Part shown: positions 5,212 to 64,000 of the stretch, one piece after another
Layout: each line of letters begins with the position of its first letter
Numbering within the stretch: the first letter of the stretch is position 1
Virus record (IMG/VR): IMGVR_UViG_3300027751_000009
Span: 14,891 to 78,890 of that record
Reading direction: 5' to 3' (one strand)
DNA from: a virus
Lineage: Duplodnaviria; Caudoviricetes
DNA: 64,000 bases
The notes under the pieces: generated by a model
What the model was told of the DNA's origin: nothing
The model's input: the letters and a program-made list of their open reading frames with translations, nothing else
The model's database searches: none
Program-made: the position numbers and the translations under genes

Positions 5212-5576
5212 AAGTAAAATTCGCAAATCGTTCAGAGAAATTATTAGTGATAGCAGCTTTTATAGTTTTAACTCTGATAACTTTAACAGCTATTCAATCA
5301 ACAAGGAATAAATCTTTACGTGATACCATAAAAAGAAACACTGTTATTGTAAAAGAGCTTGAAGCTGTAAATGAAGATTTGATGGAACAGATAGATATCT
5401 CTGAAACATCAAAAGAAATTATGTTCCAGAAAATGGATAGTGTAGAGAAAAGTGAAACTTATTTTAAAAACAAGTATTATGCAACAAATGAAAAACTTAA
5501 AAGTATTCTTGGTAATTATAATAGCTCTTCTAATGCTACCAAAAATGAGCTATTCACAAACGCTGTCAATAACTGA
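5208..5576 (+). CDS. i-spanin-like protein
   Basis: N-terminal TM plus coiled coil; overlaps the next gene out of frame. Confidence 0.45.
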   Translation: MKVKFANRSEKLLVIAAFIVLTLITLTAIQSTRNKSLRDTIKRNTVIVKELEAVNEDLMEQIDISETSKEIMFQKMDSVEKSETYFKNKYYATNEKLKSILGNYNSSSNATKNELFTNAVNN

Positions 5577-6474: not shown

Positions 6475-6966
6475 ATGAGCACACTTATAGGAAAAACAAT
6501 AGTAGAAGAAGTAGGTAGTTCATTATATAGCTTTCCTCATGCGAACGCATATTATGAAAATAATGTTACAGAAACAGTTATAATTTCAATAGGAGCATTT
6601 ATCAAACCAGCAGGAAGTTGGCTGTCATCAATCTCAGAAGAGTTTACTGTAAATGGTACAGGAAAAATGACTTACAATGGAACAATTCCAAAGCATTTTC
6701 ATATTGTTTCTAATTTTGATATGACCACTTCATCTAATAGTCAGGTAATAGCTTTTAAATGGTTTAAAAACGGAACAACACCTTTACCGGCTCAGGTAAA
6801 AAGAAAAGTTGGTACAGGTTCGGATTTAGGTGCTGGTTCAGTACATGCAGATGCAATGCTTAATCAAAATGATTATGTAGAATTAAAAGTAGCAAACACT
6901 ACTTCAATAACTAATATAACATTACAAAATGTATATTGTTTTGTTATGGGTATGCCAATGATATAA
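6475..6966 (+). CDS. C1q/BclA-like jelly-roll protein (fibre tip/decoration)
   Basis: Pattern FKWFKNG...GSVHADAMLNQNDYVELKVAN resembles C1q-like domains. Confidence 0.5.
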   Translation: MSTLIGKTIVEEVGSSLYSFPHANAYYENNVTETVIISIGAFIKPAGSWLSSISEEFTVNGTGKMTYNGTIPKHFHIVSNFDMTTSSNSQVIAFKWFKNGTTPLPAQVKRKVGTGSDLGAGSVHADAMLNQNDYVELKVANTTSITNITLQNVYCFVMGMPMI

Positions 6967-30700: not shown

Positions 30701-33700
30701 GACCCTCGATTAAGAGTTGAAATGCTACCTATGGATGATGAGTTTAAATTAACCAGACCATTAAAAGATGAAAATGGTAAGGAAACAGAAGCTGCTTTTA
30801 GAAAGCGTTTTAAGCAATGGGAGAAAAATGTTATCGTTAGTAATGATGGTATTCAATATATCTTACCAGAACACGCTGATGCTATACAAGCTTTAAATAA
30901 AGATTTCAATAAAGGTTATAAGCTATACTCACATACTATAGAGAAAGAGAATGCTTGGTTTGCAAATCAGACTTCTCAAATGAAAGGTTATACCACTGTA
31001 CTTACAGAAGAAGCTGTGACTAATGGTAATCAACAGCATCTGTACCCTATATGGAAAATTCTTACCAATAGAAATGAGAAGTTTAAAGCCGACTATCTAA
31101 AGAAATATGGAGAAGAATATGATCCTAATTTCAGAACTCAAACAAGTGTTGATAGTGATAGACCTAAATACATTCCAATAGTAACACCTGTAAGTGCTGA
31201 AAAAGCTGGGTTATTTCATACAAAAGAACTATTAGGTTTAAAGACTAAATTCAGTTTAGAGCAACTTAAAAACCCTGAAGTACAAAAAGAATATGAAGCT
31301 TTATTAGATAAACTATACTATACTGAAAGTGGTTTTGTAGGATTAGATGGTTCTAATTTTGGACCTCAACAGATAATGGATAAGCGTTATACACAAGCGA
31401 CATTCGGAACGCAAGTATTAACGTCTATACCACACGCTAAGAAAGGAGCGCCACTGAATAATGCATTGCGTATACAAGAGCTTATCAATCAACAGAAATG
31501 GGTAAACTTTAAAAAGGCTGTTCTTGATGAAATGGCGAGTTATGAAATTGATGATGATTTTAAATACAGTAGATTTATAAGAGAAGCTGCTAATAAATTA
31601 AATTCAGACCCTTATACTATTGCGGCTTTAACTTATGGAGAGTTACCTTATTCACCTCACGTTGCTGATTTCGCAGGAAACCAATTTAGAGCTCAAATTA
31701 TCAGACATGGTAACAATCTAAAAGTAACAGGTACTTATGGACAGACCATTTCAGATATGGGATATAAATTTGTAACTGATAAAAATGTAGAAGGTTTTAT
31801 AAATAGACCGAATAGAGATAAAACTTATCCAGCTGTAGAACAGTTTATAGATGAGCAAGGGAATGTAAGAAGAAAAAACAATCCTAAAGTATCTAAAGAA
31901 TATATAAATGGTACTTCAAAGCTAAACTCTTATGGTTGGAAAATTGTCGATGGGAAACAAGTTACTGTTCCATTTGAAATTGTACTTCCTGAACCATTAC
32001 CTGGAGATCAGACTGTAGCAAGAGAGTCTATATATGATGAGTTTGGCGGTGTTGATAATGCAAGAGGAAAGTTATTACATAGAAATAAAAAAGGTTTTTT
32101 AACGAATTTCAATACCTTAAAAAGATTAAAGTTATTACATCCTAATGGTACTGTAAATACAGAAGCTATGGATTTAATGCTTGAAGAAAATGGTATCTAC
32201 TCATCTCCTGTAAAAAACGAAAGAAATCGTATTGGTACTTATATACCTGGAGAAACAGTAATGCTTACAAGAATACCACATAACGGACCAGCTTTCGTAG
32301 GTGTTGCAGAAGTGGTAGGTTTTCACGATACCGGAGCTTCAAATATTATTGTTCCTGCTGAATATAGTTGGTTAGTCGGAGCTGACCACGATGGAGATGC
32401 TTTATTTATTTATCAAGCCTCTAAAAGAAAAGATGGTTCTATAGATGAGAGAATGGGAGACTCTTCGGCTGCTAAGGATAAAGGTACTATTAGAGAAGCT
32501 GGATATGGAAATTGGAATAAAGCATTTGATATGTTAATAGAACAATGGACAGCTGAAGATATGCGTATAACTTTAGAAACACCATTGCGTTTTGAGAGTA
32601 ATATGGATGCTATCATAGAAGAAAATAATGAAGCTTTAAATCCAGAGCAATATAAACAACAAAGAGCATTAGAAGAAAAACTAAATAGAGGTCTTATAGA
32701 CCAAAAAGCTTTTGAAAAAAAGTTAGCTGTTATAAAAGCGGAGGCAGACTTTGTTATTCCTTTTGGTACTGAACATTACACAAAGCAATATAACAACTCT
32801 GTAGTTGCTCAACAGACTATTGGTATCGCTTTTAATACGCATAGAGCCTTGAACTTATTAGCTACCTATGAAACAATGTTATCTAATGGTACTGTTAAAG
32901 GTAAAAATTCAAAAGGTGAAATAACTGAAAAACCAAAATTAGTAAACATCAATATAGATGGACAAGTAGAGAGAGGTTTTACAGATAGGAATGCAGACAA
33001 ACCAATAAATAAGAATAAAGGTATTAATTCACGTATTCACTTATCTACTATTCTTGCCAATATCGTATTGGATAGTACTAAGAATGGACACGCTGATGCT
33101 TTAAACTTAAACATTAATAGTATTTCTTCAGCAATGATATTAGTGAACTTAGGGTTTGATATTCAGAAAATAGGGTTACTATTTAATCACCCTATGGCAA
33201 AAGAATACATAGAGAAACGTAATGAAATGGGGAATGACTATTTGGAAACTGGTAGTTATAAGTCTATAATTTATAAATATAAAGAGAAGTATGAAAATAC
33301 CTCTTTAGAGATCTATAGCAATCCAAGTGAATTTAGTGTTACTGTAGACCCAAAGTCAAATCGTTATAATAGTGATGAAAATGGATTTGCTATTCTAAGA
33401 CTGATGCATTATTTATCCAAAATAAGTGATGATATTTCAATCATAACTGATATTACTTCAGGTCATAACAAGATGGAATTAAATGTATTTGCTTTAGAGA
33501 AGCAAGTAACGGATCTAAATGCTTTAATAACTAACAAGAAGCGTGAAGCTGAAATGGTTGGTAAAAAAGAAGGAAAGAAAAATTCTACTCTTTATTTTAG
33601 AGAGAAATCTGATTTAGCTGAAAATTCAATAGAACCATTAATTATAGATAGTCCTGAATTAAAGCATTATAAGAGAATGGCTTTAGAATTTATCAAGCAT

Positions 33701-36700
33701 CAAAGACGTTTGAGTATTATTGAAAACCCTTCTATTAGAGATATTATTACACTTGTAAAAGATAAAGTGACAGCTTCTGCTTTAAGTGGTAGAGAGTTAA
33801 AGCATTTTTCTGAATATCTTGTTCCTTTTATCTATGGTAGATTGTTAGGTGTTAATAATATTGACGTATCAGAGATAAATGATATTTTCCAATATGAAGA
33901 TGAAATTGCAGTTGGAGAAGATGCGCTATTGCCATTAGCTACAGAGTTGAAGAATTATGCAGAAATGTTAGATGATGAGCTACATACTTATTGGGAAGAC
34001 CCAAACAATGTTGGAAATAAAGATACTGATTATACACGTTCTCGTTTATTCAAGCAAGGTATCATTATAGAAGCTGGAAAAATAAAACTAAATCCACAAG
34101 TATTACAACAACATTATACGCACCCTGATAGAATAATGCTACAGAATGAATTTTCTGAATTGCCATTAGCCTTACAACGTAAATTAGTATTGTATGATTT
34201 AGTGAAAAATGGTTGGAATGGAGAAGAGTCTTTATATCCTATTTTCCCTTATGATATTACATCTTATATAACTTCAAGAGCTAAAATGTTTAAAGAAAAT
34301 GAAGAAGAATTTGCTGATAATATCATTAAAAAAGCGTACAAAAGAATACGTGATTTAGAATCATTAGCGGCAGAAGAAAATGATATGAACTATTTGCCAA
34401 GTGTCTTTTTAAATAAAGAGCTTCCAAATTTAACAGACGATCCAAGCTCTAAATCTTTTGAAGAGTTGTATAAAAAATTAGGGCACAATAAAGCTGTTAC
34501 CAATAGGATAAATGGTAGAGAAAACTTTAGAGTAAATGTATCTTATATCAGTGGTGGTAAGAGAATAAATAAGGTTATCGAAATTAATGCTATTGGCCCT
34601 TATGTTACTAAAGATGATGGTATAACCGAGTATAGTGAGTCTAAAGCTAAAGATAATGACGAATGGTCAGCTATAGCAAGAGATTTAATAACAAGTAAAA
34701 CAAGTAGAGGTTTTAAACTTGTTGGAGAACCTAAATTAGAATTATTAGAAACAAGTAATAATGTGCCTAAGAGAGCTCATATGATATTGATTAATGATAA
34801 TTCAACTGATGATAATGGTGGTTTTATAAAAGATGATGGTGTAGTTCCTAACATATTGAGTAAAGAGGCTATTGATGAAGATGCTATTTTGCAAGAAGAA
34901 AAGAACTCTAAAAAAAAAAGTAGTGTCGTAGGTAGATTTTTTAAAGATGATTACTATAATTATACAAGAGAGGACTCACTAGACCAATCAGAACTAATGA
35001 ACGCTTATGAATATAAGCAATCTTTAACATACATTCAGGAGGCTCGTATTTGGCTTAATTATCTAAGAGATAAGAAAAAGACAAACAGCTTCCTGGAAAA
35101 GTATAAAGAAGGAGAATTTAAAAAGCATCTACAAGATATAGATACTGAAGAAGTTTTAAAACTTTATAACACTTGGGGTAGATATGATGCTTATGCAGCG
35201 GCTAACATTATGGTTCCTGTTATGCTTGAACTTACCCAACGTGCTTCCAATGAACAATCAGCACTTACTAAAGTACAAGAAGGTCAAAATGATATTGGTG
35301 TAATCAAAGCTTGGTTTCAAACTAATAACATAGACTCTACACATCCAGCAACACAAGCTGTACAACGTGAATTAGAGACAGAGTTTAAAGGCTTTATGAA
35401 TGAACGTAAGAAATATCTTACGCGTATCAATGATGCTACAGAAAACTTATATGCTGAAAAATTCAATTACAATCCAGCTAAAAATAGTTTCATAAAGAAA
35501 ATACAGAGAGCTGCAGTATTACTATTTAAAAATCGTGATGATATTTACCGTATTCTTTATGGCAATATTATTACTACAGAATATCGTACAGAACGTGGTA
35601 AAGACCAAAAACGATATGCATTATTATCTGATAATATCTTACGACAAAAATTAGCTAATAATGAAATCACACAAGTTGAATACAACTTTGCTAAAACATT
35701 TCGTGAGATCACTAATGAGTTAGACCCAAAGATAAATGACGATAAATATATTGGTGGAGGAATACCAGCGATTGGTATGGGAAGATTAGAGTCTTTTGGT
35801 AGGAAAGGACTATTAGGTGTCTTAATTAACTCTCGACCAATAGATGAGGCTATAGGTGATGTAGAGTTAGAGTTTGAAGGTCAATTAATGAGATTTAAAC
35901 ATATAGAAGATATCTTTAGACAAGATAAAAAGAGCAGTTGGAAAACTAATAAAGAGTATATACAACTTCGCAATAAAGCAAAGAAACTCTTTAAAGTTAA
36001 AAAGAATGAAGATGGCTCTATGTTTAAGCATGAAGATGTGTTCAACCATACTATCTTAGGTGATGGAATGGTAAACAACTTTGCGAATGGTGGTTGGATA
36101 AATGCAGACCATATGGCTTCATTAGATTTAAACAAAGCACTCTCTGATTTTACACATACTCAACTATTCATTACAGGTAATAAGAACTTTAAAGGTTTTA
36201 AAGCACTACAAGCTACTGTAGATGGACTTTTATTACATAACAAGATGAAAGGCTTTGTAAACCAAAACAAGTTCGTTAGAAAGGTTTATAAGGAGTATTT
36301 CTTAAAAGCTAAGAAATTACAAAAAGACAGTTCTGGAGATAGAGTGATAGATGCTATTGTTAGAGGAAACCTATTATACATAATGGGTTGGAAACTATTA
36401 GCAGTAGGTAAAGGAATGTACACTATTGGAAATGTTGTAGTAGGAAAGTATAACAACATTAAAAATCAAGGTGGTAAAGCCTGGTTAATGGGAGAGAGTA
36501 GATTTTGGGGTAAACATAAAAAAGCTATGGGTATCTTAAAAACTATAAACTTTACAGATGCTAATTTCTATGACGATGTGAACTTACAATCCTCATCAGG
36601 ATTAGATTCTATATTTACTGATATTGCTCTTTGGCCTATGATGGCTTCAGAGAAATGGATTCAAGGTGTACACTTTTTAGGAATGTTATCAAAAGAGCAA

Positions 36701-37285
36701 TATGATAAATTTGATGAAAATGGTAACTACAAAGTAGGAGAGACTGAAATAACAGCACAAGAGCTTACTAAAATGGAGAATGAAGTTAAGAACTCACATG
36801 GTAAAGGTTACACACCTACAGACCAGAGATTGATACAACGTTACTCTTGGGGTAGAGCTATTATGCAGTTCAGTCGTTTTATACCTACAATGGTATATGA
36901 CAAGTTTGCTAAAGAAGATGTAAATATCTACGGAGAAAAACATATTGGTAGCTTAACAGCTGTATGGGAAATGATAGCTAAGTTTACAGGTGGTGAAATA
37001 CCTATCGGTCAACTTGGTGCTTACCGGGCAGGATTAGAACCTCAAATAAGAGCTCGTTTTGATGCAGGACTAAAAGGATTGGCAATGATTTCTGTAGCTA
37101 TTATAGCAGGAGAAACTATGAATTTAGGTGTAGCAAGAGAGCTTACTGGTGATGCTAATTATTTAGTAAATACCAGCAAGCTTGAATTTAAAGCTATGCC
37201 ATCTTCAGTAAGAACAATTTTAAATATGCTAAGTGGTCTTGCACCAACATCTGATGCAGTAGCTATGGAAGGGAAAGGATTATAA
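24794..37285 (+). CDS. Virion-packaged RNA polymerase polyprotein (crAss-like, double-psi beta-barrel) with zincin domain
   Basis: 4163 aa; TRIPH...GADHDGDAL (D2531-D2535, nt 32384-32398) is the catalytic DxDGD motif; HEFAH at aa 1122 with downstream DELFA; last gene of the virion block, as in crAss-like phages. Confidence 0.85.
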   Translation: MTDFLKVLQQAQVDKNVSQRNPVGSPTDGENEITLTEQDIDNANKPQGRLVKDPTNVNVQDGPNYPGNGISPEEDPTAGMTPEQIALEQTRMDRTPVQGEISEPLPENPYTWTPEYTQRGFVEEIGTSLMRGFGKHVVGGTGDILALVNGLIPGWEIREGNALSRGLQEVGKEFEENYKVFMPDELKDNEFTLATFTNPNFWTKTAAEYIPQLVEMIILSKGAGGVAKRTAQSGVKGLSKGMTRESLERIGSKVVANSEAQVMKGVAAQSNKILGQGPKGWRALFMDTTGEATAGFATGAEMFGGGLGMNLLAGLQNAGGLMNEMKDLRDSDGNLLYTEEQLADMASSTMIENLKYLPVDMLSYGMVYAKSTGQFNKLLNPFNKTQGKKFFNSAEQLTASSKSFTRSITPIMQAVNATESKLLKYGKKLKNTASAVSKPLFEGYEETFQETFEDWAKKKAVAKVTGQPITIDGKKSDGSMPSYFEFYLSKENEATRTIAFALGMLGGAGSNIVEAVNKKAEIAAKNYSRAELMKRAAKNELEYDYQAIFLKEQLVDNAMDGNVDSVAMLEAMAEEGIISEDMKSDYITFAKNMTLEAVKAKSLGLNDLGKVAYLNHKFNEQANKNGYKFEKAKVDEKIKNLNEEYQGKEDTKEYKAKMKDVEDSWETMENMFARDIHEAQQGILGILSGKKGDVSNITHEKLKAVQNQEGNTVAIALSEQDYNDYYNKTNDEIYKDARNKKYDPRGMFSKLGSGVKNAFKTVKEGLIGFKEKTEEKIAEIKNKGLDGLTPEQRTQYDKAKASKEAIDTELASMKIGEDGVTKDSYNAKKAEATALEVEMADLLAKSKANIQSTIKNAKGGRAYMDPLLEPEEEADEEAPVRKPGMMDKLIKSLFTKKNQTEENIIATEEEIAKKLEDAKIDFTDEVKAKKALERLISTEDGVIQSLQTKDDFNKEEFIAYLMKMGKEGNFKSETKIEKEARIDRNAKKKKKTEEIKKAQRETPTGKNVRQHDLGKKFNDPNWNKEYKKIVKQDPTQATLLQEEYDEYLSSIQAGLKYGPTAIIQQVAVNQHLRQLYPDSKIQAYAMNNMVDALGGTKALGYAALAGIFIDEKVWFQSEIFMHEFAHIHYSLSKNDPATVELMKQALNDKQLVSRIEDEYADDVVYYYAQPGWKSGMKKDKIFFGDMTAEQKDQLGKPHRNGVLMARKAPMHEQPVIMDELFANYLQGPMSKKFSKYFNPRTDLPRQAQVKNWWRRIKDKAKKQEDNNFNLAQKLSEEKLDGTNINDHIMNNFVSMIQGKPVTVGGRFALDNEKSTITKEDNLDIMKRLREEQAKSRNKQNKADIKMVEAFYAPIKIDEDKKGTLVDDWDLWDRPLPEANEEFSQVDALEKLNQDIETNIGTMWDDNYNATMMKTTEVIKHFVEQFNKVSNERKSAEIEAVKNDPKAKKVDAMYTEGINLNKFTEGLMDLAYMYDSPIDFIRVLEQTNDIHQKEFMKHLNAEFKQDALQRLVTMHLLYGNTAIIPGIIHTVDKNGEYTSVTAQSANDPIIIKRTLKQLSRKTIEQKNLLEDAIDILERGDIETREVQEAAAEIIKFYGHDLNIAKKIIGNGYLIINKKNVPIVSALKQLLNATEQEIIPFTGNKSNDEFMMAGTVRTKLKPIKDRNERIISSILLTGKRFGSTSVVKGPTGNNVTTRMFSNHAIKLFNKIVVDLKNSEYTGKAKKEFITKYSNSDKSVTVSSFNPLLESFYDNFHLKGELPLMVLDFGSKNEMFNKAKNYKDMSAEQQLINELLQFTESIKNEDSNYLGSMDILGNSSRRLLVGLPRIENILTADGNFNAKGASHLNKIFSIYESLNKDKKKAMEGIPNKIGANFPQFEKAIKKDADKWIKYLAEHSESLSKVKSLQPFYQTKDGTVLNKLTKEGETLIKNFIFNRVANTFYVHEMMSPGLFLDGLTKNNKGHVAPVIALDPRLRVEMLPMDDEFKLTRPLKDENGKETEAAFRKRFKQWEKNVIVSNDGIQYILPEHADAIQALNKDFNKGYKLYSHTIEKENAWFANQTSQMKGYTTVLTEEAVTNGNQQHLYPIWKILTNRNEKFKADYLKKYGEEYDPNFRTQTSVDSDRPKYIPIVTPVSAEKAGLFHTKELLGLKTKFSLEQLKNPEVQKEYEALLDKLYYTESGFVGLDGSNFGPQQIMDKRYTQATFGTQVLTSIPHAKKGAPLNNALRIQELINQQKWVNFKKAVLDEMASYEIDDDFKYSRFIREAANKLNSDPYTIAALTYGELPYSPHVADFAGNQFRAQIIRHGNNLKVTGTYGQTISDMGYKFVTDKNVEGFINRPNRDKTYPAVEQFIDEQGNVRRKNNPKVSKEYINGTSKLNSYGWKIVDGKQVTVPFEIVLPEPLPGDQTVARESIYDEFGGVDNARGKLLHRNKKGFLTNFNTLKRLKLLHPNGTVNTEAMDLMLEENGIYSSPVKNERNRIGTYIPGETVMLTRIPHNGPAFVGVAEVVGFHDTGASNIIVPAEYSWLVGADHDGDALFIYQASKRKDGSIDERMGDSSAAKDKGTIREAGYGNWNKAFDMLIEQWTAEDMRITLETPLRFESNMDAIIEENNEALNPEQYKQQRALEEKLNRGLIDQKAFEKKLAVIKAEADFVIPFGTEHYTKQYNNSVVAQQTIGIAFNTHRALNLLATYETMLSNGTVKGKNSKGEITEKPKLVNINIDGQVERGFTDRNADKPINKNKGINSRIHLSTILANIVLDSTKNGHADALNLNINSISSAMILVNLGFDIQKIGLLFNHPMAKEYIEKRNEMGNDYLETGSYKSIIYKYKEKYENTSLEIYSNPSEFSVTVDPKSNRYNSDENGFAILRLMHYLSKISDDISIITDITSGHNKMELNVFALEKQVTDLNALITNKKREAEMVGKKEGKKNSTLYFREKSDLAENSIEPLIIDSPELKHYKRMALEFIKHQRRLSIIENPSIRDIITLVKDKVTASALSGRELKHFSEYLVPFIYGRLLGVNNIDVSEINDIFQYEDEIAVGEDALLPLATELKNYAEMLDDELHTYWEDPNNVGNKDTDYTRSRLFKQGIIIEAGKIKLNPQVLQQHYTHPDRIMLQNEFSELPLALQRKLVLYDLVKNGWNGEESLYPIFPYDITSYITSRAKMFKENEEEFADNIIKKAYKRIRDLESLAAEENDMNYLPSVFLNKELPNLTDDPSSKSFEELYKKLGHNKAVTNRINGRENFRVNVSYISGGKRINKVIEINAIGPYVTKDDGITEYSESKAKDNDEWSAIARDLITSKTSRGFKLVGEPKLELLETSNNVPKRAHMILINDNSTDDNGGFIKDDGVVPNILSKEAIDEDAILQEEKNSKKKSSVVGRFFKDDYYNYTREDSLDQSELMNAYEYKQSLTYIQEARIWLNYLRDKKKTNSFLEKYKEGEFKKHLQDIDTEEVLKLYNTWGRYDAYAAANIMVPVMLELTQRASNEQSALTKVQEGQNDIGVIKAWFQTNNIDSTHPATQAVQRELETEFKGFMNERKKYLTRINDATENLYAEKFNYNPAKNSFIKKIQRAAVLLFKNRDDIYRILYGNIITTEYRTERGKDQKRYALLSDNILRQKLANNEITQVEYNFAKTFREITNELDPKINDDKYIGGGIPAIGMGRLESFGRKGLLGVLINSRPIDEAIGDVELEFEGQLMRFKHIEDIFRQDKKSSWKTNKEYIQLRNKAKKLFKVKKNEDGSMFKHEDVFNHTILGDGMVNNFANGGWINADHMASLDLNKALSDFTHTQLFITGNKNFKGFKALQATVDGLLLHNKMKGFVNQNKFVRKVYKEYFLKAKKLQKDSSGDRVIDAIVRGNLLYIMGWKLLAVGKGMYTIGNVVVGKYNNIKNQGGKAWLMGESRFWGKHKKAMGILKTINFTDANFYDDVNLQSSSGLDSIFTDIALWPMMASEKWIQGVHFLGMLSKEQYDKFDENGNYKVGETEITAQELTKMENEVKNSHGKGYTPTDQRLIQRYSWGRAIMQFSRFIPTMVYDKFAKEDVNIYGEKHIGSLTAVWEMIAKFTGGEIPIGQLGAYRAGLEPQIRARFDAGLKGLAMISVAIIAGETMNLGVARELTGDANYLVNTSKLEFKAMPSSVRTILNMLSGLAPTSDAVAMEGKGL

Positions 37286-57572: not shown

Positions 57573-57883
57573 ATTGTTTTTATTTTATTATGCATTAATA
57601 CTGCTTCTTTAAAAGATACATTATGTTCCTTTTGAAGTTTCTTTATAGATATTATGAATTTACCACGTTTAGTGGTACGCACCCTAAAACAAGAGTGCGT
57701 ATCTTTATTCTTATATCCATAGAAATCTTGACCTATGATTTCTCTCTCTATTTTCTTCCATAAAATTTTAGACCCTATGGTGTACTTTGATGCCTCTTTA
57801 TGAGGTACATAAATCTTACCCATTAGGTACGTTTTGTATGTTGTTTCTTCGTAGGTATGGTGCATATACAAGTGTATATCCAA
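57560..57883 (-). CDS. Hypothetical basic protein
   Basis: Coding strand; true start may be internal (MGKIY). Confidence 0.5.
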   Translation of the reverse strand: MDIHLYMHHTYEETTYKTYLMGKIYVPHKEASKYTIGSKILWKKIEREIIGQDFYGYKNKDTHSCFRVRTTKRGKFIISIKKLQKEHNVSFKEAVLMHNKIKTICNH

Positions 57884-58226
57884 TACCCATTACACATAAT
57901 GCACCAGCTATTGTTACTCCCAATGTGACTGTTGCATATATACTTCCTGTGAATATAACTATATCAATAAACCTATTAGATTTAGTGATAAGCCATTTCA
58001 AGTGTGCGTTCTGTTCTACTAATGCTATGAGTCCACCAAGCATTAGTGTTCCCATTATTACCTGACTGCCTATGGCTGCCGAAAACAATAGTCCTCCCGT
58101 TACTAATACACCACCAAATATCAATGCACCTGTTGTCAAAGACATAGGTTTGATTACTGGTAGGTTTAGATTAAAAACAGGCTCATCTACGTGAGCCTGT
58201 TCTCCTACAAATCTATCTCTTCTCAA
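57816..58226 (-). CDS. Multi-TM membrane protein
   Basis: About four hydrophobic Gly-rich helices. Confidence 0.6.
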   Translation of the reverse strand: MRRDRFVGEQAHVDEPVFNLNLPVIKPMSLTTGALIFGGVLVTGGLLFSAAIGSQVIMGTLMLGGLIALVEQNAHLKWLITKSNRFIDIVIFTGSIYATVTLGVTIAGALCVMGIGYTLVYAPYLRRNNIQNVPNG

Positions 58227-58228
58227 AA

Positions 58229-59392
58229 TTATATTGAAGGTTTAAGTTGTGCATCTAATGACGCATTTACTTGCTTCTTAAATTCGCTTGTTTGTATAGC
58301 GATATTACTTCCTGCCTTTTGTATTTGGCTGAATAATAATGCTGGTACTGCATATACAGGTGCAATAATTCTATTGCTACGCATAAGTGCTGCATCTTTA
58401 AGTTCCGCTCTTGTTTGGTCAGGGTGTAACCCTAACGGTTTGATAGCTGCCGCCTCAGCCCAAGCACCACCTACTGCCATTAATGCACAAGCATCACTGG
58501 CCATATTCCACGCTACTATCCAAGTGGTAGAAACTACTTTGATACCAATCTCTGTAGCTTGTGCACCACCTCTACGCATTCTGCGTGTCATTGGTACAAC
58601 AACCTCTGCTTTGTGGACTTGCTCTTTAGGAGCTTCCACTTTAGGTGGTTGTGTTTTGTCAGCTGGTTTAGTTGCACCAGGTGCATTAGCTAACATAGCA
58701 TTCATAATAGCAATTTGTTCCTTTAACTGTTCTTCAGTTAGGAATACTTGCTCTTGTGTTTGTACTTCAGGTTCCACTTGTTCAGTTCCAATAGGAGCTG
58801 GTGGTACTTGAACTACCTTTGGTTTTTCAATAGGTGTTACCTTTTTAGCTCTCGATTTACGAGTAGCTTTAGGTTTTACAACCTCTTCTACTACCACTGT
58901 TGGTGGTGCAGGTGCTTTAACTGTTTTTGTTTCCACTTTTTTCTTGTTTTTAGTGGTTACTGATTTAGTAGTTGGTGTTACTACTGCATTTGCATCAATG
59001 GATGCTACTGTGTTTACTGTTGATTTTTTCATTTCGTTTGTTTTTCTATTGTTTAATAATTCTAATGTTTCTAATGCTTCACTTGTTTTCTTATCTATCC
59101 AATCAATGTCTTTTCTGAATAGTTCCCCTGTTTCGTGATCTCCGATTCTTGGGTTGAATATGTCCTCTACTTTTGATAAATCATTAAGTAGTATTTCCGG
59201 TGATGATACTTGTGTCATTTCTGCCACAAAATCATACTTCTTACGGAACATTCTAAAGACCATATTGTAATAGCCTCTAATTCCATCAACAAAGTCTGTT
59301 TTGTCGTATGGGTACATTGGTTGTGTTTCATTTTCAATAATGAAAAAGAACTCTTGTGGTGTTTCAACCACGATTGCTTTTGGTCGTGCCAT
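58229..59392 (-). CDS. Early protein with K/T/P-rich linker; preceded by the hairpin motif
   Basis: 387-aa ORF on the coding strand. Confidence 0.65.
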   Translation of the reverse strand: MARPKAIVVETPQEFFFIIENETQPMYPYDKTDFVDGIRGYYNMVFRMFRKKYDFVAEMTQVSSPEILLNDLSKVEDIFNPRIGDHETGELFRKDIDWIDKKTSEALETLELLNNRKTNEMKKSTVNTVASIDANAVVTPTTKSVTTKNKKKVETKTVKAPAPPTVVVEEVVKPKATRKSRAKKVTPIEKPKVVQVPPAPIGTEQVEPEVQTQEQVFLTEEQLKEQIAIMNAMLANAPGATKPADKTQPPKVEAPKEQVHKAEVVVPMTRRMRRGGAQATEIGIKVVSTTWIVAWNMASDACALMAVGGAWAEAAAIKPLGLHPDQTRAELKDAALMRSNRIIAPVYAVPALLFSQIQKAGSNIAIQTSEFKKQVNASLDAQLKPSI

Positions 59393-59423
59393 TTGTATAT
59401 ATGCCTGTTTCCAGGACTTTATT
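59393..59423 (-). promoter_or_regulatory. Conserved hairpin motif, copy D
   Basis: AATAAAG T CCTG GAAA CAGG C ATATATACAA then ATG. Confidence 0.7.
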
Positions 59424-59426
59424 AAA

Positions 59427-59672
59427 TTACGATGTTAATAGATTAACTACTTCTGTTAAGTATTTAATATCCATTGTGTTTTGCCCTAATATGATTATCC
59501 TTCTGATATCATCTTCATAAAGACATCTGTTCTTGTCTACAGTAATAGGTATGGCTATAGTAATGCCATCACTATTTGTGATTTGTAGTTCATATTTGTA
59601 CTCTACTCTCAATTTAGTTGAATACTCTCTTTTAACCAATTTCGTTTCTGATACTATCTGTACTGTGTTCAT
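59427..59672 (-). CDS. Hypothetical protein
   Basis: Packed operon. Confidence 0.55.
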   Translation of the reverse strand: MNTVQIVSETKLVKREYSTKLRVEYKYELQITNSDGITIAIPITVDKNRCLYEDDIRRIIILGQNTMDIKYLTEVVNLLTS

Positions 59673-59674
59673 AG

Positions 59675-60097
59675 TTATTTGTTTTGAGTGTTATTATATT
59701 TTTCTCTTAAGCGATTATACATATCTGCTTTATTTTGAATATAATGGTCTATAAGAATATTACCTTCTTCGAATGTATAATTGTCAATGATTGCTTTCAA
59801 TTCCTCACATTGTTTAGTGACCCATTGTTTATCATGAGTACTATTATTATATCTGTGGTTTGTATCAAACCCAATTTTCCAATACTCATTATCTTTTGTC
59901 CATTCATTGAATGTTATTTCTTGATGGAAATCAGGAATACTTAAATACCCATAAGGGTCTAAGTCTGTTAGTAATTGATGTATAAGATATGGATGTCCTT
60001 TTGGAATTAGAACATAACCATTTCCCCAACCTCTTTCACCAGGGTAGTTCATAAAATTGTTCTCTTGATAGCCGAATAATTCAATTTTTGTTTTCAT
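59675..60097 (-). CDS. Conserved phage protein
   Basis: GWGNGYV.IP.GHP...H.EITF...W.IGFDTNH motif. Confidence 0.6.
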   Translation of the reverse strand: MKTKIELFGYQENNFMNYPGERGWGNGYVLIPKGHPYLIHQLLTDLDPYGYLSIPDFHQEITFNEWTKDNEYWKIGFDTNHRYNNSTHDKQWVTKQCEELKAIIDNYTFEEGNILIDHYIQNKADMYNRLREKYNNTQNK

Positions 60098-60098
60098 T

Positions 60099-60320
60099 TT
60101 AACAAATGTTTTTAGTTATTAATGTTATTAATGTTTTAAGCCTTGTAGCTTCTGCTTCAAGTTCTTTAATCTTGTTAAGGATTTGATGTACTCGATGTCC
60201 TGTTGCTGTATCTATGGATACATACTTCTCATCTAATAATTCATTGACTAATCCTCTGTACACTTTAGCTGTGTGTACCAATCTTTGTTCTCTTTTAGAG
60301 ATGTGACCTATTTTACTCAC
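60099..60320 (-). CDS. Hypothetical protein (GTG start); preceded by the hairpin motif
   Basis: Packed operon. Confidence 0.6.
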   Translation of the reverse strand: MSKIGHISKREQRLVHTAKVYRGLVNELLDEKYVSIDTATGHRVHQILNKIKELEAEATRLKTLITLITKNIC

Positions 60321-60350
60321 GATATATATGCCCTATTAAGGGACTTTATT
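60321..60350 (-). promoter_or_regulatory. Conserved hairpin motif, copy C
   Basis: AATAAAG T CCCT TAAT AGGG C ATATATATC then GTG. Confidence 0.7.
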
Positions 60351-60942
60351 GATTATGTTTTAATTTCCTTAAAGCTTTCATTTTAGTTAAAACTTTGGCT
60401 TTATGTAATTTGTAGCATTCCATTTTAAATACAGCTAATGAACCATTATTACGATATCTGTTATTGTATATGATTACATATCTATTATACAATTTGGTGT
60501 CCATCTTATTGAACCATTGCTGTGCTTCTTTATCAAGTTCATATTCTCTTCTAATCTTACGATTTGTATCGAAGATGAATTTGTTTGTTTCTGGATAGTC
60601 AGTAGCTAATATCTCTTGGTCATGTGACCAATACATATGACATTGACCTTTTGATTCTTCTAATGCAAATTCTAAGCCTTCTAAATCATCTATGTATGTG
60701 ATATAACCTCTCATTTGACCGAAGTCATAAAAGCTTAATAATAAGCCTTTCTTCTTACGACCATAAATGTCTACTATGAATATCCCCTGTTTTAAACAGT
60801 TTAGTAATGTTTGAGTATTTGCTGAACATAAATCAAAGTGATTATCTATATCTAACTCATTATGTAAATAATAGTGTGATAAATGTTCTCCTCTTTTGTT
60901 ATACTCACAATGTTTTGAAGGATATATAATTGATTTCTTCAT
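60346..60942 (-). CDS. Hypothetical protein
   Basis: Likely start MKKSIIY at 60942, one nt after the upstream stop. Confidence 0.6.
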   Translation of the reverse strand: MKKSIIYPSKHCEYNKRGEHLSHYYLHNELDIDNHFDLCSANTQTLLNCLKQGIFIVDIYGRKKKGLLLSFYDFGQMRGYITYIDDLEGLEFALEESKGQCHMYWSHDQEILATDYPETNKFIFDTNRKIRREYELDKEAQQWFNKMDTKLYNRYVIIYNNRYRNNGSLAVFKMECYKLHKAKVLTKMKALRKLKHNQ

Positions 60943-60943
60943 C

Positions 60944-61231
60944 TTATTCTCCAATTGATTGTTCGTAATCCCAAGTGAATGCTTTGTTACCATCAGCATC
61001 TATATACTTATAACCTTTAAACTCTTTTTGTTTTTTAGGTTCAAACTTTACATCATTACGTGTAGATACTACTCGTAGTTGTTCTGGCTCTATATACACA
61101 TCTGTATATAAACCATTAGCATTCTCTATAGTGATACCTATACGGTCACTATTCTCCATTTCAAAGAAATCAAACGTCAAGCTACCATACTGTAACTTGG
61201 TAATTGTTCTCTTAAACATTGTTTTACTCAT
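60944..61231 (-). CDS. Hypothetical protein; preceded by the hairpin motif
   Basis: Likely start MSKTMFKR at 61231. Confidence 0.6.
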   Translation of the reverse strand: MSKTMFKRTITKLQYGSLTFDFFEMENSDRIGITIENANGLYTDVYIEPEQLRVVSTRNDVKFEPKKQKEFKGYKYIDADGNKAFTWDYEQSIGE

Positions 61232-61260
61232 CTTATATTGCCTCATTAAAGGACTTTATT
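61232..61260 (-). promoter_or_regulatory. Conserved hairpin motif, copy B
   Basis: AATAAAG T CCTT TAAT GAGG C AATATAAG then ATG. Confidence 0.7.
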
Positions 61261-61518
61261 TAATTGTCTTAATATCTTTTAAAGAATATCAACCCCTTTT
61301 TTTTTGTGCTCTTATGAGCACCCCTACTACCTACATATCTAACAATAGTACCTAACAGTTATCTGTTGCTATACTATTCTATATGTCTGCCGTAGTAGTA
61401 ATACCTTTTTAACCCAATAATACTACCCAATAGGCTTCATCAGAACAGCTCTCTTTTGAGAGGTGTTTATGAAGTAGAGATATAGTATTATATTATCTCT
61501 TTTTTAGCAAAAGAGTGA

Positions 61519-61526
61519 CAAACGTA
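61519..61526 (-). promoter_or_regulatory. Bacteroidota -7 promoter box (TAnnTTTG), leftward
   Basis: TACGTTTG on the - strand, in the divergent intergenic region; no clear -33 box. Confidence 0.45.
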
Positions 61527-61562
61527 GTGGTACTGTGGTGTACAGCTGATATTTGCTGAAAA

Positions 61563-61640
61563 AAAAGTAGTCTTTATGACTACTTTTGTATCTAAATGTT
61601 GACAAATAGTGTCAAAAAGTAGTCTTTATGACTACTTTTT
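61563..61640. repeat. Palindromic operator/iteron array
   Basis: AAAAGTAGTC-TTTAT-GACTACTTTT at 61563-61587 and 61615-61639, with TTGACA-AATAG-TGTCAA (61599-61615) between them. Confidence 0.85.
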
Positions 61641-61644
61641 ATGT

Positions 61645-61652
61645 TACATTTG
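61645..61652 (+). promoter_or_regulatory. Bacteroidota -7 promoter box (TAnnTTTG), rightward
   Basis: TACATTTG about 20 nt upstream of the likely ATG at 61673. Confidence 0.5.
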
Positions 61653-61672
61653 ACTGTTCGCAAATACTATGA

Positions 61673-62060
61673 TATGATAACCAACATTGAAGACTATCTA
61701 AATAGTCATACCAGACAGTTTACTACCGATGATTACATCTTTAATTCTTATAATGCTCCTAATACAACCTATCAGGTGTCCAATGAGCTCGATGAGCTGT
61801 TGTTAACCTTGTCATACAGTGGTATGAAGTGTTGGCATAGGTGCCTTTCCTTACTAAAGCGTAATACTGATGCTACTAAAGCGTGTACTGTGGTGCTGTC
61901 GCTCCACCTGTTCACTGATATAGTATCTAAAAAGTATTACTACTTTGGTATTAAGGAGTTGGTTGAACGCTCGCTGCTGCTCGCTACCAACGATAAGAAT
62001 GTGTTTATCGTTAACATAAAACATGCTAACAAACTTTATAAGCCAAAGCTGGATATATAA
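61673..62060 (+). CDS. RepL-like winged-helix protein (replication initiator/regulator)
   Basis: The only + strand gene in the early region; VSKKYYYFGIKELVERSLL....KNVFIVNI resembles the RepL wHTH; likely start MITNIED; followed by a terminator. Confidence 0.5.
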
Positions 62061-62125
62061 ATATTATCCATATCTTTGTAACTCATAGAACTGTTGTTAT
62101 CTGTTTTTGCGAACGATAAACACTG

Positions 62126-62157
62126 AATAGCCAGCGTAACCGCTGGCTATTTCTTTT
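62126..62157 (+). terminator. Intrinsic terminator between convergent genes
   Basis: AATAGCCAGCG-TAAC-CGCTGGCTATT then TCTTTT. Confidence 0.8.
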
Positions 62158-62677
62158 AGTACATAATCGGTTTGTGATACAGATTAGGTGCTTCTAAACC
62201 ATAATGTAGATTAGAATGCAGAACTGTAGCTTCACGAAACCTTTGGTACTGACTTACTGCTTTCTTAACAGTACGGTCATATGCTACTACTTTGTTGGTA
62301 ATAGCATCTCGCATCACTTCACCTAAGCTATTCTTAACTGGATTGTATATTTCATCTACACATTCCAATTTATAGTTCTCTAAAGCTGGTACACCATCAG
62401 CTGGCTTGAAGTGTACTAAGGCAAATGGGCTCTCGTTATAGAGTGCTCTAGTGCTCTTGTTTACATCAATGATATCATCTGTAATGTACAGTTGATTGGC
62501 ATATCTGTTGTTCACATTAATTTTTGTGTCTTGTTTCTTGTTAAGCAATCTCCACATCAATAATGCAGATAGATTAACTGTTACACAAGTCCACTCTCTT
62601 TGGTTAGCATAAGCATATTGAAACAATGCTGTACGCTTTCCATAGTTGACATTTGTCAAATAATGAAATAGTTTCAT
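62156..62677 (-). CDS. Hypothetical protein
   Basis: Likely start MKLFHY at 62677 (the track start overlaps the upstream gene). Confidence 0.55.
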   Translation of the reverse strand: MKLFHYLTNVNYGKRTALFQYAYANQREWTCVTVNLSALLMWRLLNKKQDTKINVNNRYANQLYITDDIIDVNKSTRALYNESPFALVHFKPADGVPALENYKLECVDEIYNPVKNSLGEVMRDAITNKVVAYDRTVKKAVSQYQRFREATVLHSNLHYGLEAPNLYHKPIMY

Positions 62678-62729
62678 AATATAGTTGTCGATTGATCCAC
62701 TGCTGACCACAGCTTTAAATGTTATATTA

Positions 62730-63053
62730 TTATAATGATTGATTTTCCCAGACGTATCCTGCCTGAAAATCACATTTTATTTCGTATTTATTTAATACAT
62801 TTCTAACAATGTTATTGTCGTACCAGCCTTTACCTGGTTGGATACTACAAATTATTGTTTTTATTTTAGGATTAGGTCCGCCTCTCATATAAGCGTAAGA
62901 CCCATACTCTTGGTTCTGAAGTTTCATCTCTCCTATTTCAGAGAAATTAAATATCAATTGACATTTTTTGTTAACTGATAATTTCTCTAAATCTTTGTAC
63001 AGTTTAGAACCTTTGATTCTAACTATTGCTTCGCATGTTTCTTTTGTTTTCAT
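62730..63053 (-). CDS. Hypothetical protein
   Basis: Packed operon. Confidence 0.6.
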   Translation of the reverse strand: MKTKETCEAIVRIKGSKLYKDLEKLSVNKKCQLIFNFSEIGEMKLQNQEYGSYAYMRGGPNPKIKTIICSIQPGKGWYDNNIVRNVLNKYEIKCDFQAGYVWENQSL

Positions 63054-63325
63054 TTATTAAGGTCTTTAGAGATACGTTTGTCTAAATCATTAAACTCATT
63101 AGCTATAGCTATTATACCTGCTATAACCTTTGGATTAGTAGATAGATTCTCAACTGACTTGAATATATTACTATACACACTAATAACTTGATTAACCATC
63201 TTGATATCATCTGTTTGTGTTTCTTTAGCTAACTCTGATTGAACTGCTAATAAGCATCTGTTTACTAATGATGCTATTTCATAAGCCTTGATAGCTTTCT
63301 CTGCAATACTCTTTTCTGGTCCCAT
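63050..63325 (-). CDS. Hypothetical helical protein
   Basis: Packed operon. Confidence 0.6.
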   Translation of the reverse strand: MGPEKSIAEKAIKAYEIASLVNRCLLAVQSELAKETQTDDIKMVNQVISVYSNIFKSVENLSTNPKVIAGIIAIANEFNDLDKRISKDLNK

Positions 63326-63327
63326 GA

Positions 63328-63510
63328 TTACTTGCCAGATTTAGATTGTTCGTACCCAGTCTTTAGTCCTTTAAAGAACCCAGACCCTACTTGTTTCAAT
63401 AAGCCTAAACCCATTGATGCATACACTACTGCATTAGCTGTAATGTCAATTGTTGTTTGCTCTACCACTGATACAGCAGGAGCTTTCTTTGTTGCGGCTT
63501 TCTTTGCCAT
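63328..63510 (-). CDS. Small basic/amphipathic early protein downstream of the hammerhead
   Basis: Likely start MAKKAATKK at 63510 by analogy with the other motif copies. Confidence 0.6.
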   Translation of the reverse strand: MAKKAATKKAPAVSVVEQTTIDITANAVVYASMGLGLLKQVGSGFFKGLKTGYEQSKSGK

Positions 63511-63537
63511 GTTTTTTGCGCTCATTGCGACTTTATT
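63511..63537 (-). promoter_or_regulatory. Conserved hairpin motif, copy A
   Basis: AATAAAG T CGC AATGA GCG C AAAAAAC then ATG. Confidence 0.6.
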
Positions 63538-63543
63538 TATTAA

Positions 63544-63598
63544 TACTCCGTTTCATCCTCTTGGAATCATCAGGCACACCACACAGTGTACTACAGAA
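63544..63598 (-). ncRNA. Type III hammerhead ribozyme
   Basis: UUCU-GUA|-GUACAC-UGUGUG-GUGUGC-CUGAUGA-UUCC-AAGA-GGAU-GAAA-CGGAG: complete core, GUA cleavage triplet, stems I-III all pair. Confidence 0.85.
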
Positions 63599-63634
63599 AA
63601 TGAGTAGTTTATAGTCATACTCAGGACTATTGAA

Positions 63635-63862
63635 TTATAGTAGTATTTCCGCCCACTCTGATTGTTCAGCATAGGACACATAACCTTTGACAGTACCAGC
63701 TAATGTTTTTCTACCCGGATATACTCCACCAACTCTGATGTATGTATTTCCACAGTAACCTTTGAATACTTCTCTTGGCTCTTGAATGATAAAGATATCG
63801 GTCTCTACAATTCCGGTTCTACCATCTATAACTCTTAGCTTAAACTCTAATGTTCTCATCAC
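63635..63862 (-). CDS. Hypothetical early protein
   Basis: First - strand ORF in the window. Confidence 0.55.
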   Translation of the reverse strand: MMRTLEFKLRVIDGRTGIVETDIFIIQEPREVFKGYCGNTYIRVGGVYPGRKTLAGTVKGYVSYAEQSEWAEILL

Positions 63863-64000
63863 TAATTTTTTAAGTTATAAAAGACTCTCTTTTTCGGATA
63901 AATAGTTTATACCCCCCCTACCCGAAAATTGATTGAAGGGAGGGGTCAAACTACAATCTGTTACCCTCCCGCGTATAAATTTTTTTATAAAGTCTTTTTG

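Follow-up and report, generated by a model that had tools for sequence, protein, structure and literature searches.

Four copies of motif M before early start codons

The stretch of DNA analysed here (the window, 64,000 nucleotides, nt) comprises bases 14891–78890 of the 78,890-bp virus record IMGVR_UViG_3300027751_000009, and our subject is motif M, a short bulged hairpin with conserved flanks that lies directly before start codons of early genes in four copies, A to D. The early genes occupy the − strand at the right end of the window and continue across the record junction, on the far side of which the terminase gene lies ∼2.5 kb from the early region. To judge from its proteins, the record is a divergent marine crAss-like phage: a 3268-amino-acid (aa) open reading frame (ORF) matches the Crassvirus muzzle protein PF25731 (E 1e-66), the capsid protein matches Crass_capsid, weakly, the terminase is 22–26% identical to Crassvirales terminases, and a 4163-aa ORF (24794–37285) carries at residue 2531 the sequence GADHDGD, the catalytic-loop pattern of two-barrel RNA polymerases (RNAPs). 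PF00940, the T7-like single-subunit RNAP family, was not found in this 4163-aa virion protein, and comparison of the virion RNAP region with phage records and PDB gave no match. Start codons are preceded by A/T-rich sequence without Shine–Dalgarno motifs, and TAnnTTTG boxes, the consensus of the Bacteroidota-type −7 box, lie upstream of late genes; both features are to be expected with a Bacteroidota host. We find that M is under selection as a cis element of a set of early-gene cassettes, is strand-specific and shows real compensatory changes, as the initial annotation had supposed in calling it a regulon element, and we tentatively favour the reading that it acts in the mRNA leader as a translation-initiation operator. 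The four copies, and the gene pair most consistently found behind M, are as follows.

63511–63539, − strand: M copy A; AATAAAGT 63537–63530, CGC-AATGA-GCG 63529–63519, C 63518, ATG 63510
61233–61262, − strand: M copy B; AATAAAGT 61260–61253, CCTT-TAAT-GAGG 61252–61241, C 61240, ATG 61231
60323–60352, − strand: M copy C; AATAAAGT 60350–60343, CCCT-TAAT-AGGG 60342–60331, C 60330, GTG 60320
59396–59425, − strand: M copy D; AATAAAGT 59423–59416, CCTG-GAAA-CAGG 59415–59404, C 59403, ATG 59392
58229–59392, − strand: D-family gene
57816–58226, − strand: P136-family membrane-protein gene

The initial annotation had placed the four copies at these positions, and reading of the − strand confirmed their stems, loops and spacings, the start codon following 7, 8, 9 and 10 nt after the conserved C in A, B, C and D respectively. 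The G–C pair that had been proposed to close the stem over a bulged U is present in the minimum-free-energy RNA fold of every copy. Copy A, which precedes the gene for a 60-aa basic protein by 7 nt, is divergent (CGC/GCG stem, AATGA loop); copy B contains one U·G wobble (CCUU-UAAU-GAGG), stands 8 nt from its ATG and leads a two-gene cassette that is not in the relative L013; copy C, 9 nt from its GTG, has the stop codon of the upstream gene within its AAUAAAG; and copy D, which lies 10 nt from the ATG of the D-family gene (387 aa), probably occupies the ancestral site of M. The in-frame ATG that was reported 15 nt before the start, in the loops of A and B, is indeed there (ORFs 63328–63525 and 60944–61246); it is probably incidental, because it is not conserved at the orthologous sites of L013.

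Neither the DNA nor the 387-aa protein revealed close relatives in the phage collection or IMG/VR, and the contigs with the exact 387-aa protein were only strains at least 99.7% identical, which hold no covariation information; relatives were gathered through terminase similarity. The octamer AATAAAGT alone occurs at chance frequency (13 found as against 11.4 expected). A covariance model had been suggested as a check, and model R2, built solely from relatives' copies (alignment A7) and run on both strands of the whole 79-kb genome, recovered D (34.7 bits, E 6e-7), C (29.0 bits, E 2.7e-5) and B (28.8 bits, E 3.1e-5), with A as the fourth match (13.4 bits, E 0.8) and nothing else in the genome standing out. 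Copy A, the best non-training match of models R1 and R2 (14.9 and 13.4 bits), is not significant alone; we accept it as M because the orthologous site in L013 (3605–3635) is a strong member even though the encoded proteins are 32% identical over their full length. The L013 ortholog of copy C (gene 480–704, site L013d) carries CCUA-UAAU-UAGG, the two stems differing by double changes. M was confined to the early region in the genome-wide model scans, within which the fifth copy suspected at 62719–62701 was found by neither R1 nor R2 at E ≤ 10; that sequence belongs to a separate element, F, described below. M matched no Rfam family, in keeping with the annotation's failure to recognise one: no family reached its gathering score in the window or in seven relatives, and there was no relevant match at E ≤ 10 in 59000–64000.

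Compensatory changes in M

The consensus, derived from 29 distinct copies (alignment A9), reads A-rich tract, AAG, one bulged U, A or C, CC(U)N, a loop of 4–7 nt (often GAAA or UAAU), N′(A)GG, CA, a G-poor leader and ATG. All 145 of the 145 pair cells hold standard pairs. The innermost pair, adjacent to the loop, is GC in 15 copies, AU in 11, UA in two and UG in one; the third pair is UA in 27, CG in one and UG in one; and the outer pair over the bulge is GC in 28 and AU in one. Compensatory changes were seen in three pairs, the covariation score was 0.31 as compared with 0.11 in shuffles (0 of 500 reached 0.31), and sliding the partners against each other collapsed the pairing. A C followed by a purine is kept immediately after the stem in 28 of the 29 copies, and the leader from the last G of the stem to the start codon measures 8–13 nt in nearly every copy and is almost free of G.

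Several copies had been collected with patterns that demanded pairing or fixed the outer bases, and two ascertainment checks were therefore made. A sequence-only scan with AGNCC..GGCR fixed gave both inner pairs in 15 of 32 matches on the early strand and in none of 25 on the wrong strand. When IMG/VR was searched with a pattern that left the innermost pair free, pairing was present in 16 of 19 matches in leader context as against 35 of 73 others; eight of these 19 leader-context copies have GAAA or GUAA loops.

Two simpler accounts of the sequence were tried and rejected. A host sigma-type promoter inside M would need more than a loop that is TATAAT-like only at times and inconsistently, and M has no TAnnTTTG box or −35/−10 pair; a split Shine–Dalgarno sequence (AAAG plus GAGG) fits copy B alone.

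M in other phages and the genes behind it

The relative L013 (87% terminase identity) has four copies of M, as in the window, while more distant crAss-like members (L046, L024, L018, L017, L021, L022, L048, L029 and L030) usually have one; L015 and L016 have none, though they keep E1, a second early-region element to which we return below. M recurs in further phages of Flavobacteriaceae and is also present in many viral contigs outside the clade, among them the 81-kb record L158/G001, with four clustered copies, and G002, a 59-kb podophage-type genome judged 92% complete. G002 belongs to a different phage family, its terminase grouping with those of Flavobacterium ‘elemo’, Cellulophaga and Tenacibaculum podophages. 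Its 2201-aa protein has no DxDxD motif, its 2347-aa protein contains thrombospondin repeats, and it gave no match to PF00940, PF00623 or the window's polymerase region. The early region of phi14:2 contains neither M nor E1, and a blastn search of 50,697 phage records with a 36-nt M query returned chance matches only.

M is most commonly found upstream of the clade-specific D-family gene, followed by the P136-family gene; D-family homologues stand behind M also in L017, L021, L022, L048, L024, L052 and L053. P136 is predicted to be a small, multi-pass hydrophobic membrane protein, and the structure model of D, of low confidence (pLDDT 62), has a long helical hairpin and a basic linker that is disordered. 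Members of the D family are 250–440 aa long; besides an N-terminal domain they have a disordered, basic linker rich in Pro and Lys and, at the C-terminus, a helical hairpin that is conserved, and they fall into 17 representative clusters only, among 1.8 billion proteins. Separately, GCGAAGC mini-hairpins were observed within longer stems just upstream of M or F in L017 (∼6600–6625) and L024 (∼5505–5530).

Comparison of the window with L013 showed that M-headed cassettes have been inserted or moved, with breakpoints of homology at M. L013 is without the B cassette (61526–60364), a unit of M plus a 73-aa gene sits elsewhere in it, and homology resumes at copy C; yet orthologous M sites were retained while the proteins fell to 32% identity. 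Could M then have little function in expression, persisting as a junction sequence at which cassettes are shuffled, or as a weak terminator-like element of the opposite strand? It is at M that the window and L013 begin to differ in the order and content of their cassettes, the same leader is found on unrelated genes in unrelated phages and bacterial modules, and the + strand reads as a hairpin followed by CUUUAUU. We regard this as improbable: recombination alone leaves the compensatory changes, the strand bias and the fixed distance to the start unexplained, and a 4–5-bp stem is too short for an intrinsic terminator. The behaviour resembles that of the PeSL cassettes of T4-type phages, which combine a strong sigma70-type promoter with a real terminator stem-loop (PMC2839356, PMC4122927). 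In both systems stem-loop cassettes are repeated before small non-essential early genes, and insertions, deletions and swaps have their breakpoints at the cassettes; M differs in having neither a host promoter consensus nor a stem of terminator grade. On the favoured reading of M as a leader element, the same ∼30-nt leader is probably also a recombination point for cassette exchange, because it heads otherwise unrelated cassettes.

M in bacterial chromosomes

A search of bacterial genomes with a 21-mer of the commonest M variant (AUAAAGUCCUGGAAACAGGCA) yielded matches of three classes. True chromosomal copies of M lie 7–9 nt before start codons in the Flavobacteriaceae Gaetbulibacter, Gilvirhabdus, Altibacter, Lutibacter and Hyunsoonleella. 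There are one or two copies per 3–4-Mb genome, and a match was found in six of 151 sampled Flavobacteriaceae genomes (∼4%), so that M is not a general host signal. The second class is a coding coincidence, a methyltransferase stretch encoding DKVLEIGTG, and the third, an irrelevant repeat element of Lachnospiraceae. In that element AUAAAGUCCUGGAAACAGGCA forms the centre of a longer multi-copy repeat with UUUUCUAU/AUAGAAAA arms that does not adjoin start codons (L181, L184, L196 and ∼20 other loci in Lacrimispora, Hungatella and others; L076 and L172 in IMG/VR); it is probably unrelated to M. The chromosomal modules, with E1 and M or with M alone, are:

L197, 6400–7640: Gaetbulibacter sp. M235
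L204, 40–830: Gilvirhabdus luticola
L187, 2900–3490: Altibacter sp. HG106
L207: further module
L182: further module

The genes behind chromosomal M are P136 homologues, either alone or after a gene for a 204–214-aa protein; they are 32–65% identical to the phage proteins and 47–54% identical to that of the window. Among the genes next to the modules are those for an AbiEii-like ATPase and a type I restriction-modification methylase. A complete E1 lies ∼20 to 60 nt ahead of M in Gaetbulibacter, Gilvirhabdus and Altibacter. The modules may represent relics of phages, satellites, or host genes brought under a phage promoter.

E1 and the transcription units of the early region

Three further features bear on where transcription of the early genes may begin and end:

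63883–63945, − strand: E1; C-box 63945–63938, G-box 63923–63912, AAAAAGAGAGTC 63894–63883
62125–62152, both strands: bidirectional terminator hairpin of 11–12 bp, closing the first operon, which E1 would drive
61519–61526, − strand: TACGTTTG, a TAnnTTTG −7 box ∼265 nt upstream of copy B

E1 consists of a C-rich box, TTTT, a G-rich box (GGGGTAGGGGGG or the self-complementary GGGGTACCCC), 17–20 nt and AAAAGAGAGTC; in the window it lies 21–24 nt before the first early start codon (GTG 63862 or ATG 63859). Every relative, down to those with 41% terminase identity, has it once per genome, at the head of the early region and a variable 20–55 nt before the first early start codon; within it, AAAAGAGAGT is invariant in 15 relatives (41–100% terminase identity). 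A second copy of E1 was noted at bases 330–452 of the record (L012), and in three long contigs the contig end lies within ∼100 nt of E1. Wherever E1 and M co-occur (L018, Gaetbulibacter, Gilvirhabdus and Altibacter) the order is E1, M, ATG, and in L018 M follows E1 by 17 nt and precedes the ATG by 10 nt. The two elements are independent, and serial when together, because M occurs without E1 in G002 (whole record) and G001 (a 20-kb stretch around the M cluster), and E1 without M in L015 and L016.

We read E1 as a promoter-like or equivalent entry signal that is not part of M, because it is extremely conserved alongside the polymerase and its internal spacing is fixed while its distance to the gene varies. 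It is our best candidate for the early promoter of the virion RNAP or for a signal of the leading genome end. The two-barrel virion RNAP of phage P23-45 offers a parallel: there, a conserved AT-rich motif at pre-early genes was defined by mapped transcription starts, and the text of the preprint does not mention a hairpin (10.1101/2022.12.01.518664). The likeness lies in a conserved motif upstream of pre-early genes in a phage with a two-barrel RNAP in the virion, and in this clade the P23-45 motif corresponds better to E1 than to M.

The terminator at 62125–62152 ends the E1 operon and thereby places copies B–D in a different transcription unit from copy A; the box at 61519–61526 is a candidate host-RNAP promoter for the B–D unit. 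The early region contains a single gene on the + strand (61641–62060), whose position is conserved in L013, L016, L017 and L018; it sits between the terminator and paired palindromes, and TAnnTTTG boxes point both ways (61519–62157).

M and E1 have in common an A(A/G)AGUC core, and M might itself be a compact hairpin promoter for the virion RNAP or another RNAP, with transcription starting at the C–A after the stem, leaders of 7–12 nt and a function analogous to that of N4 early promoters. This would suit the confinement of M to the early region and the C–purine that follows the stem, as well as the B cassette, for which the only other candidate is a weak box of host type at a distance of 265 nt; every cassette would then be expressed autonomously. 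It would suit, too, the preference of the crAss-like virion RNAP gp66 for single-stranded templates, and the finding in a study of phi14:2 of no common motif upstream of early transcripts, no crAss-like early promoter motif being known (10.1101/2020.03.07.982082). The N4 early promoters form hairpins on the template strand, with a 5–7-bp stem and a 3-nt loop centred at −11; they are extruded by supercoiling and stabilised by SSB, occur in three copies at the leading genome end and are used by a T7-like enzyme (PMC4496689). M is like them in being a short inverted repeat with conserved flanks before early genes, in a phage that injects its own RNAP, and in that the non-conserved stem bases vary freely provided that pairing is kept.

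Most of the features that can be compared nevertheless point away from a hairpin promoter, which we consider unlikely. The stems of M are bulged and 4–5 bp long, that is 3–4 bp plus the outer G–C over the bulge, and the loops are of 4–7 nt or longer (12–13 nt in one class), rather than of 3 nt with a central purine near −11. All four copies form the hairpin as RNA, whereas their DNA folds amount to −1.2 to −2.9 kcal/mol and copy B forms none as single-stranded DNA on either strand, so that a template-strand hairpin stable enough to extrude is not found. The wobbles of M favour the sense strand (four G·U as against one A·C, which is weak evidence) and would be A·C mismatches on the template strand, and the distance to the start codon is fixed. 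M has no G-box, whereas the deeply conserved E1 has one; it lies between E1 and the ATG in four lineages; and it is absent from L015 and L016, which keep E1. The phage has a polymerase of two-barrel type instead of a T7-like single-subunit virion RNAP, which lowers the case for membership of the N4 class, not for functional analogy, and G002 carries M with no detectable RNAP. Finally, one promoter class cannot explain all four copies, because A lies in the E1 operon and B–D lie behind the terminator with a host-type box.

M as a proposed element of the mRNA leader

Of the three mechanisms put forward in the initial annotation, a translational operator or enhancer fits best, the hairpin promoter fares poorly as described above, and a boxB-like antitermination site leaves the tie to the start codon unexplained. 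Action at the mRNA level fits best because of the fixed start-codon spacing, the frequent GNRA loops and the sense G·U wobbles, and because the stems are too weak for extrusion from DNA, M lies downstream of E1, and M is found in a phage in which no RNAP is detectable. We therefore tentatively propose, with confidence short of even, that M is a hairpin of the mRNA leader which may act as a translation-initiation operator for a small set of early cassettes. The hairpin would comprise five base pairs (G–C, bulged U/A, C–G, C–G, U–A, N–N′) capped by a small loop rich in A and often of GNRA type. An A-rich single strand would lead into it, and on its 3′ side CA and 8–13 unstructured nt poor in G would connect it to the start codon. 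We infer an effect on translation because M sits ∼9–25 nt before the start, about where contact of the small ribosomal subunit with the leader would be expected in hosts without Shine–Dalgarno pairing; a putative trans-acting factor would read M at the base of the helix. Transcription would start elsewhere, at E1 for the first operon and probably at a host-type promoter for the B–D unit.

Phage translational operators include the coat-protein operators of MS2, Qbeta and PP7 and the gene 32 and RegA sites of T4. Like M, these are small bulged hairpins with a 4-nt loop, or structured elements with an unstructured A/U-rich leader, situated in the ribosome-binding region of specific genes, and they are read by proteins; the stem of M ends 8–13 nt before the start in nearly all copies and so falls within that region. 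M differs in that it does not contain the start codon, belongs to a host group without Shine–Dalgarno-led initiation, is present in multiple copies and is common to unrelated phages; a binding protein is known for the operators, and none for M. Among 58 early and middle proteins no RNA-binding family was recognised, most early ORFs being without annotation.

Several observations weigh against the translational reading. The pairing statistic is partly inflated by the manner in which copies were collected. The RNA folds of the four copies are weak (−2.7 to −5.5 kcal/mol) and no better than shuffles (z +0.45 to −0.84), so that the case for structure rests on covariation. A long-loop class (CCU, 12–13 nt with CUAAAUAU, AGG; L017, L031, L052 and L053) has only three to four pairs, and in it sequence matters as much as structure; one copy in L158 lies 62 nt from the next ATG; and the conserved C–purine right after the stem also resembles a transcription start. 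Simple autoregulation by the downstream D or P136 protein is not supported, because both look like membrane proteins and neither like an RNA binder.

The nearest alternative to a translational operator is that M is a site of RNA processing or stability, cleaved within the A-rich strand or immediately 3′ of the stem by an endoribonuclease of host or phage. Cleavage would leave the hairpin at the new 5′ end of the following cistron or at the 3′ end of the preceding one, so that the cassettes of a polycistronic early RNA are uncoupled. The RNA-level evidence serves this explanation equally. M is found inside operons at cistron junctions, overlapping the upstream stop codon in copy C and in L013d, and after long untranslated stretches such as the ∼265-nt leader before B, and an A-rich single strand beside a hairpin is the typical context of endonuclease sites of the RNase E/Y type. 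A pure processing site, however, need not hold 8–13 nt to the start codon; B and the chromosomal modules have no cistron ahead of them that could be protected; and no nuclease was identified. We judge it doubtful.

In its architecture, a short hairpin with a GNRA-type loop behind a conserved single strand, M also recalls the boxA–boxB arrangement of the lambda nut sites; on this reading the nascent hairpin and the strand upstream of it would load a phage antitermination factor onto the polymerase. The 60-aa protein encoded behind copy A is Lys-rich at its N-terminus, and a strong terminator follows the first operon. Yet nut sites are promoter-proximal, one per operon, with a conserved boxB loop and no tie to a start codon, whereas M is present in up to four copies per genome, inside operons and 7–10 nt (from the conserved C) before the start, with loops that vary (GAAA, UAAU, AAUGA, CAAAAA and others). 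In the two-gene chromosomal modules a role for antitermination is not obvious, and no N-like protein was recognised. A nut-like function is accordingly the least probable of the explanations considered here, and highly so. In position and form M is like the translational operators, and in evolutionary behaviour like the PeSL cassettes; with N4 promoters it has only the context in common, and its likeness to nut sites is superficial. We file it among the regulatory hairpins of phage early-gene leaders.

Element F and other features of the early region

The sequence that had been suspected of being a degenerate fifth copy of M lies in element F:

62683–62716, − strand: F (AGCUGUGGUCAGCAGUGGAUCAAUCGACAA), a conserved leader just before the ATG at 62677
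record bases ∼105–150, − strand: further F site
L013, ∼3010: further F site
L024, ∼5490: further F site

F is a leader element separate from M, because its sequence AGCUGUGGUCAGCAGU..AUCGACA recurs before the alternative-cassette ORF X, in L013 and in L024, and because the models of M miss it. It is a leader of ∼30 nt, CUGUGGUCAGCAGUGGAUCAAUCGACAA, 5–12 nt before start codons, conserved in sequence and with no covariation seen.

The same 120-bp element, which contains E1, and the same 99-bp element are found at both ends of the record (bases 1–452, L012; window 63531–64000), where they flank two different small ORFs, of 75 aa and 60 aa. Metagenome contigs L002–L004 carry one variant and L005 the other; on this evidence the two ORFs are alternative cassettes in the phage population, and the terminal duplication of the record is probably an assembly of both. 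The phage is contained in estuarine samples of the JGI 3300009024, 3300009080 and 3300027753 series.

A type III hammerhead was considered 7 nt upstream of copy A, at 63544–63598 on the − strand. The stretch contains the core letters CUGAUGA and GAAA but matched no Rfam hammerhead model even at E ≤ 10, and the candidate was rejected; the sequence was not seen in those leader regions of relatives that were read.

Implications

If M proves to be a leader hairpin of modest effect, it would be a useful yet ordinary addition to the regulatory motifs of phages; it is at the same time a candidate for a new cis-regulatory RNA motif in a group that initiates translation without Shine–Dalgarno pairing. 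A more far-reaching proposal, which we consider speculative and rather unlikely, is that E1 and M together are the early expression signal of the marine crAss-like clade, with E1 as the long-sought promoter of the two-barrel virion RNAP and M as either the leader element that belongs to it or a further promoter, of hairpin type, and that some Flavobacteriaceae have copied this signal before membrane-protein modules near defence genes, so that the polymerase of an incoming phage would switch on the host or satellite gene at injection. E1 and the chromosomal E1–M modules may outweigh M in importance. The early promoters of crAss-like virion RNAPs are unknown, and E1 and M are two sharply defined candidate signals. 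Dozens of natural variants, natural compensatory changes and cultivable Flavobacteriaceae with chromosomal E1–M modules are available, and with these variants and carriers the start of the crAss-like programme becomes directly testable.

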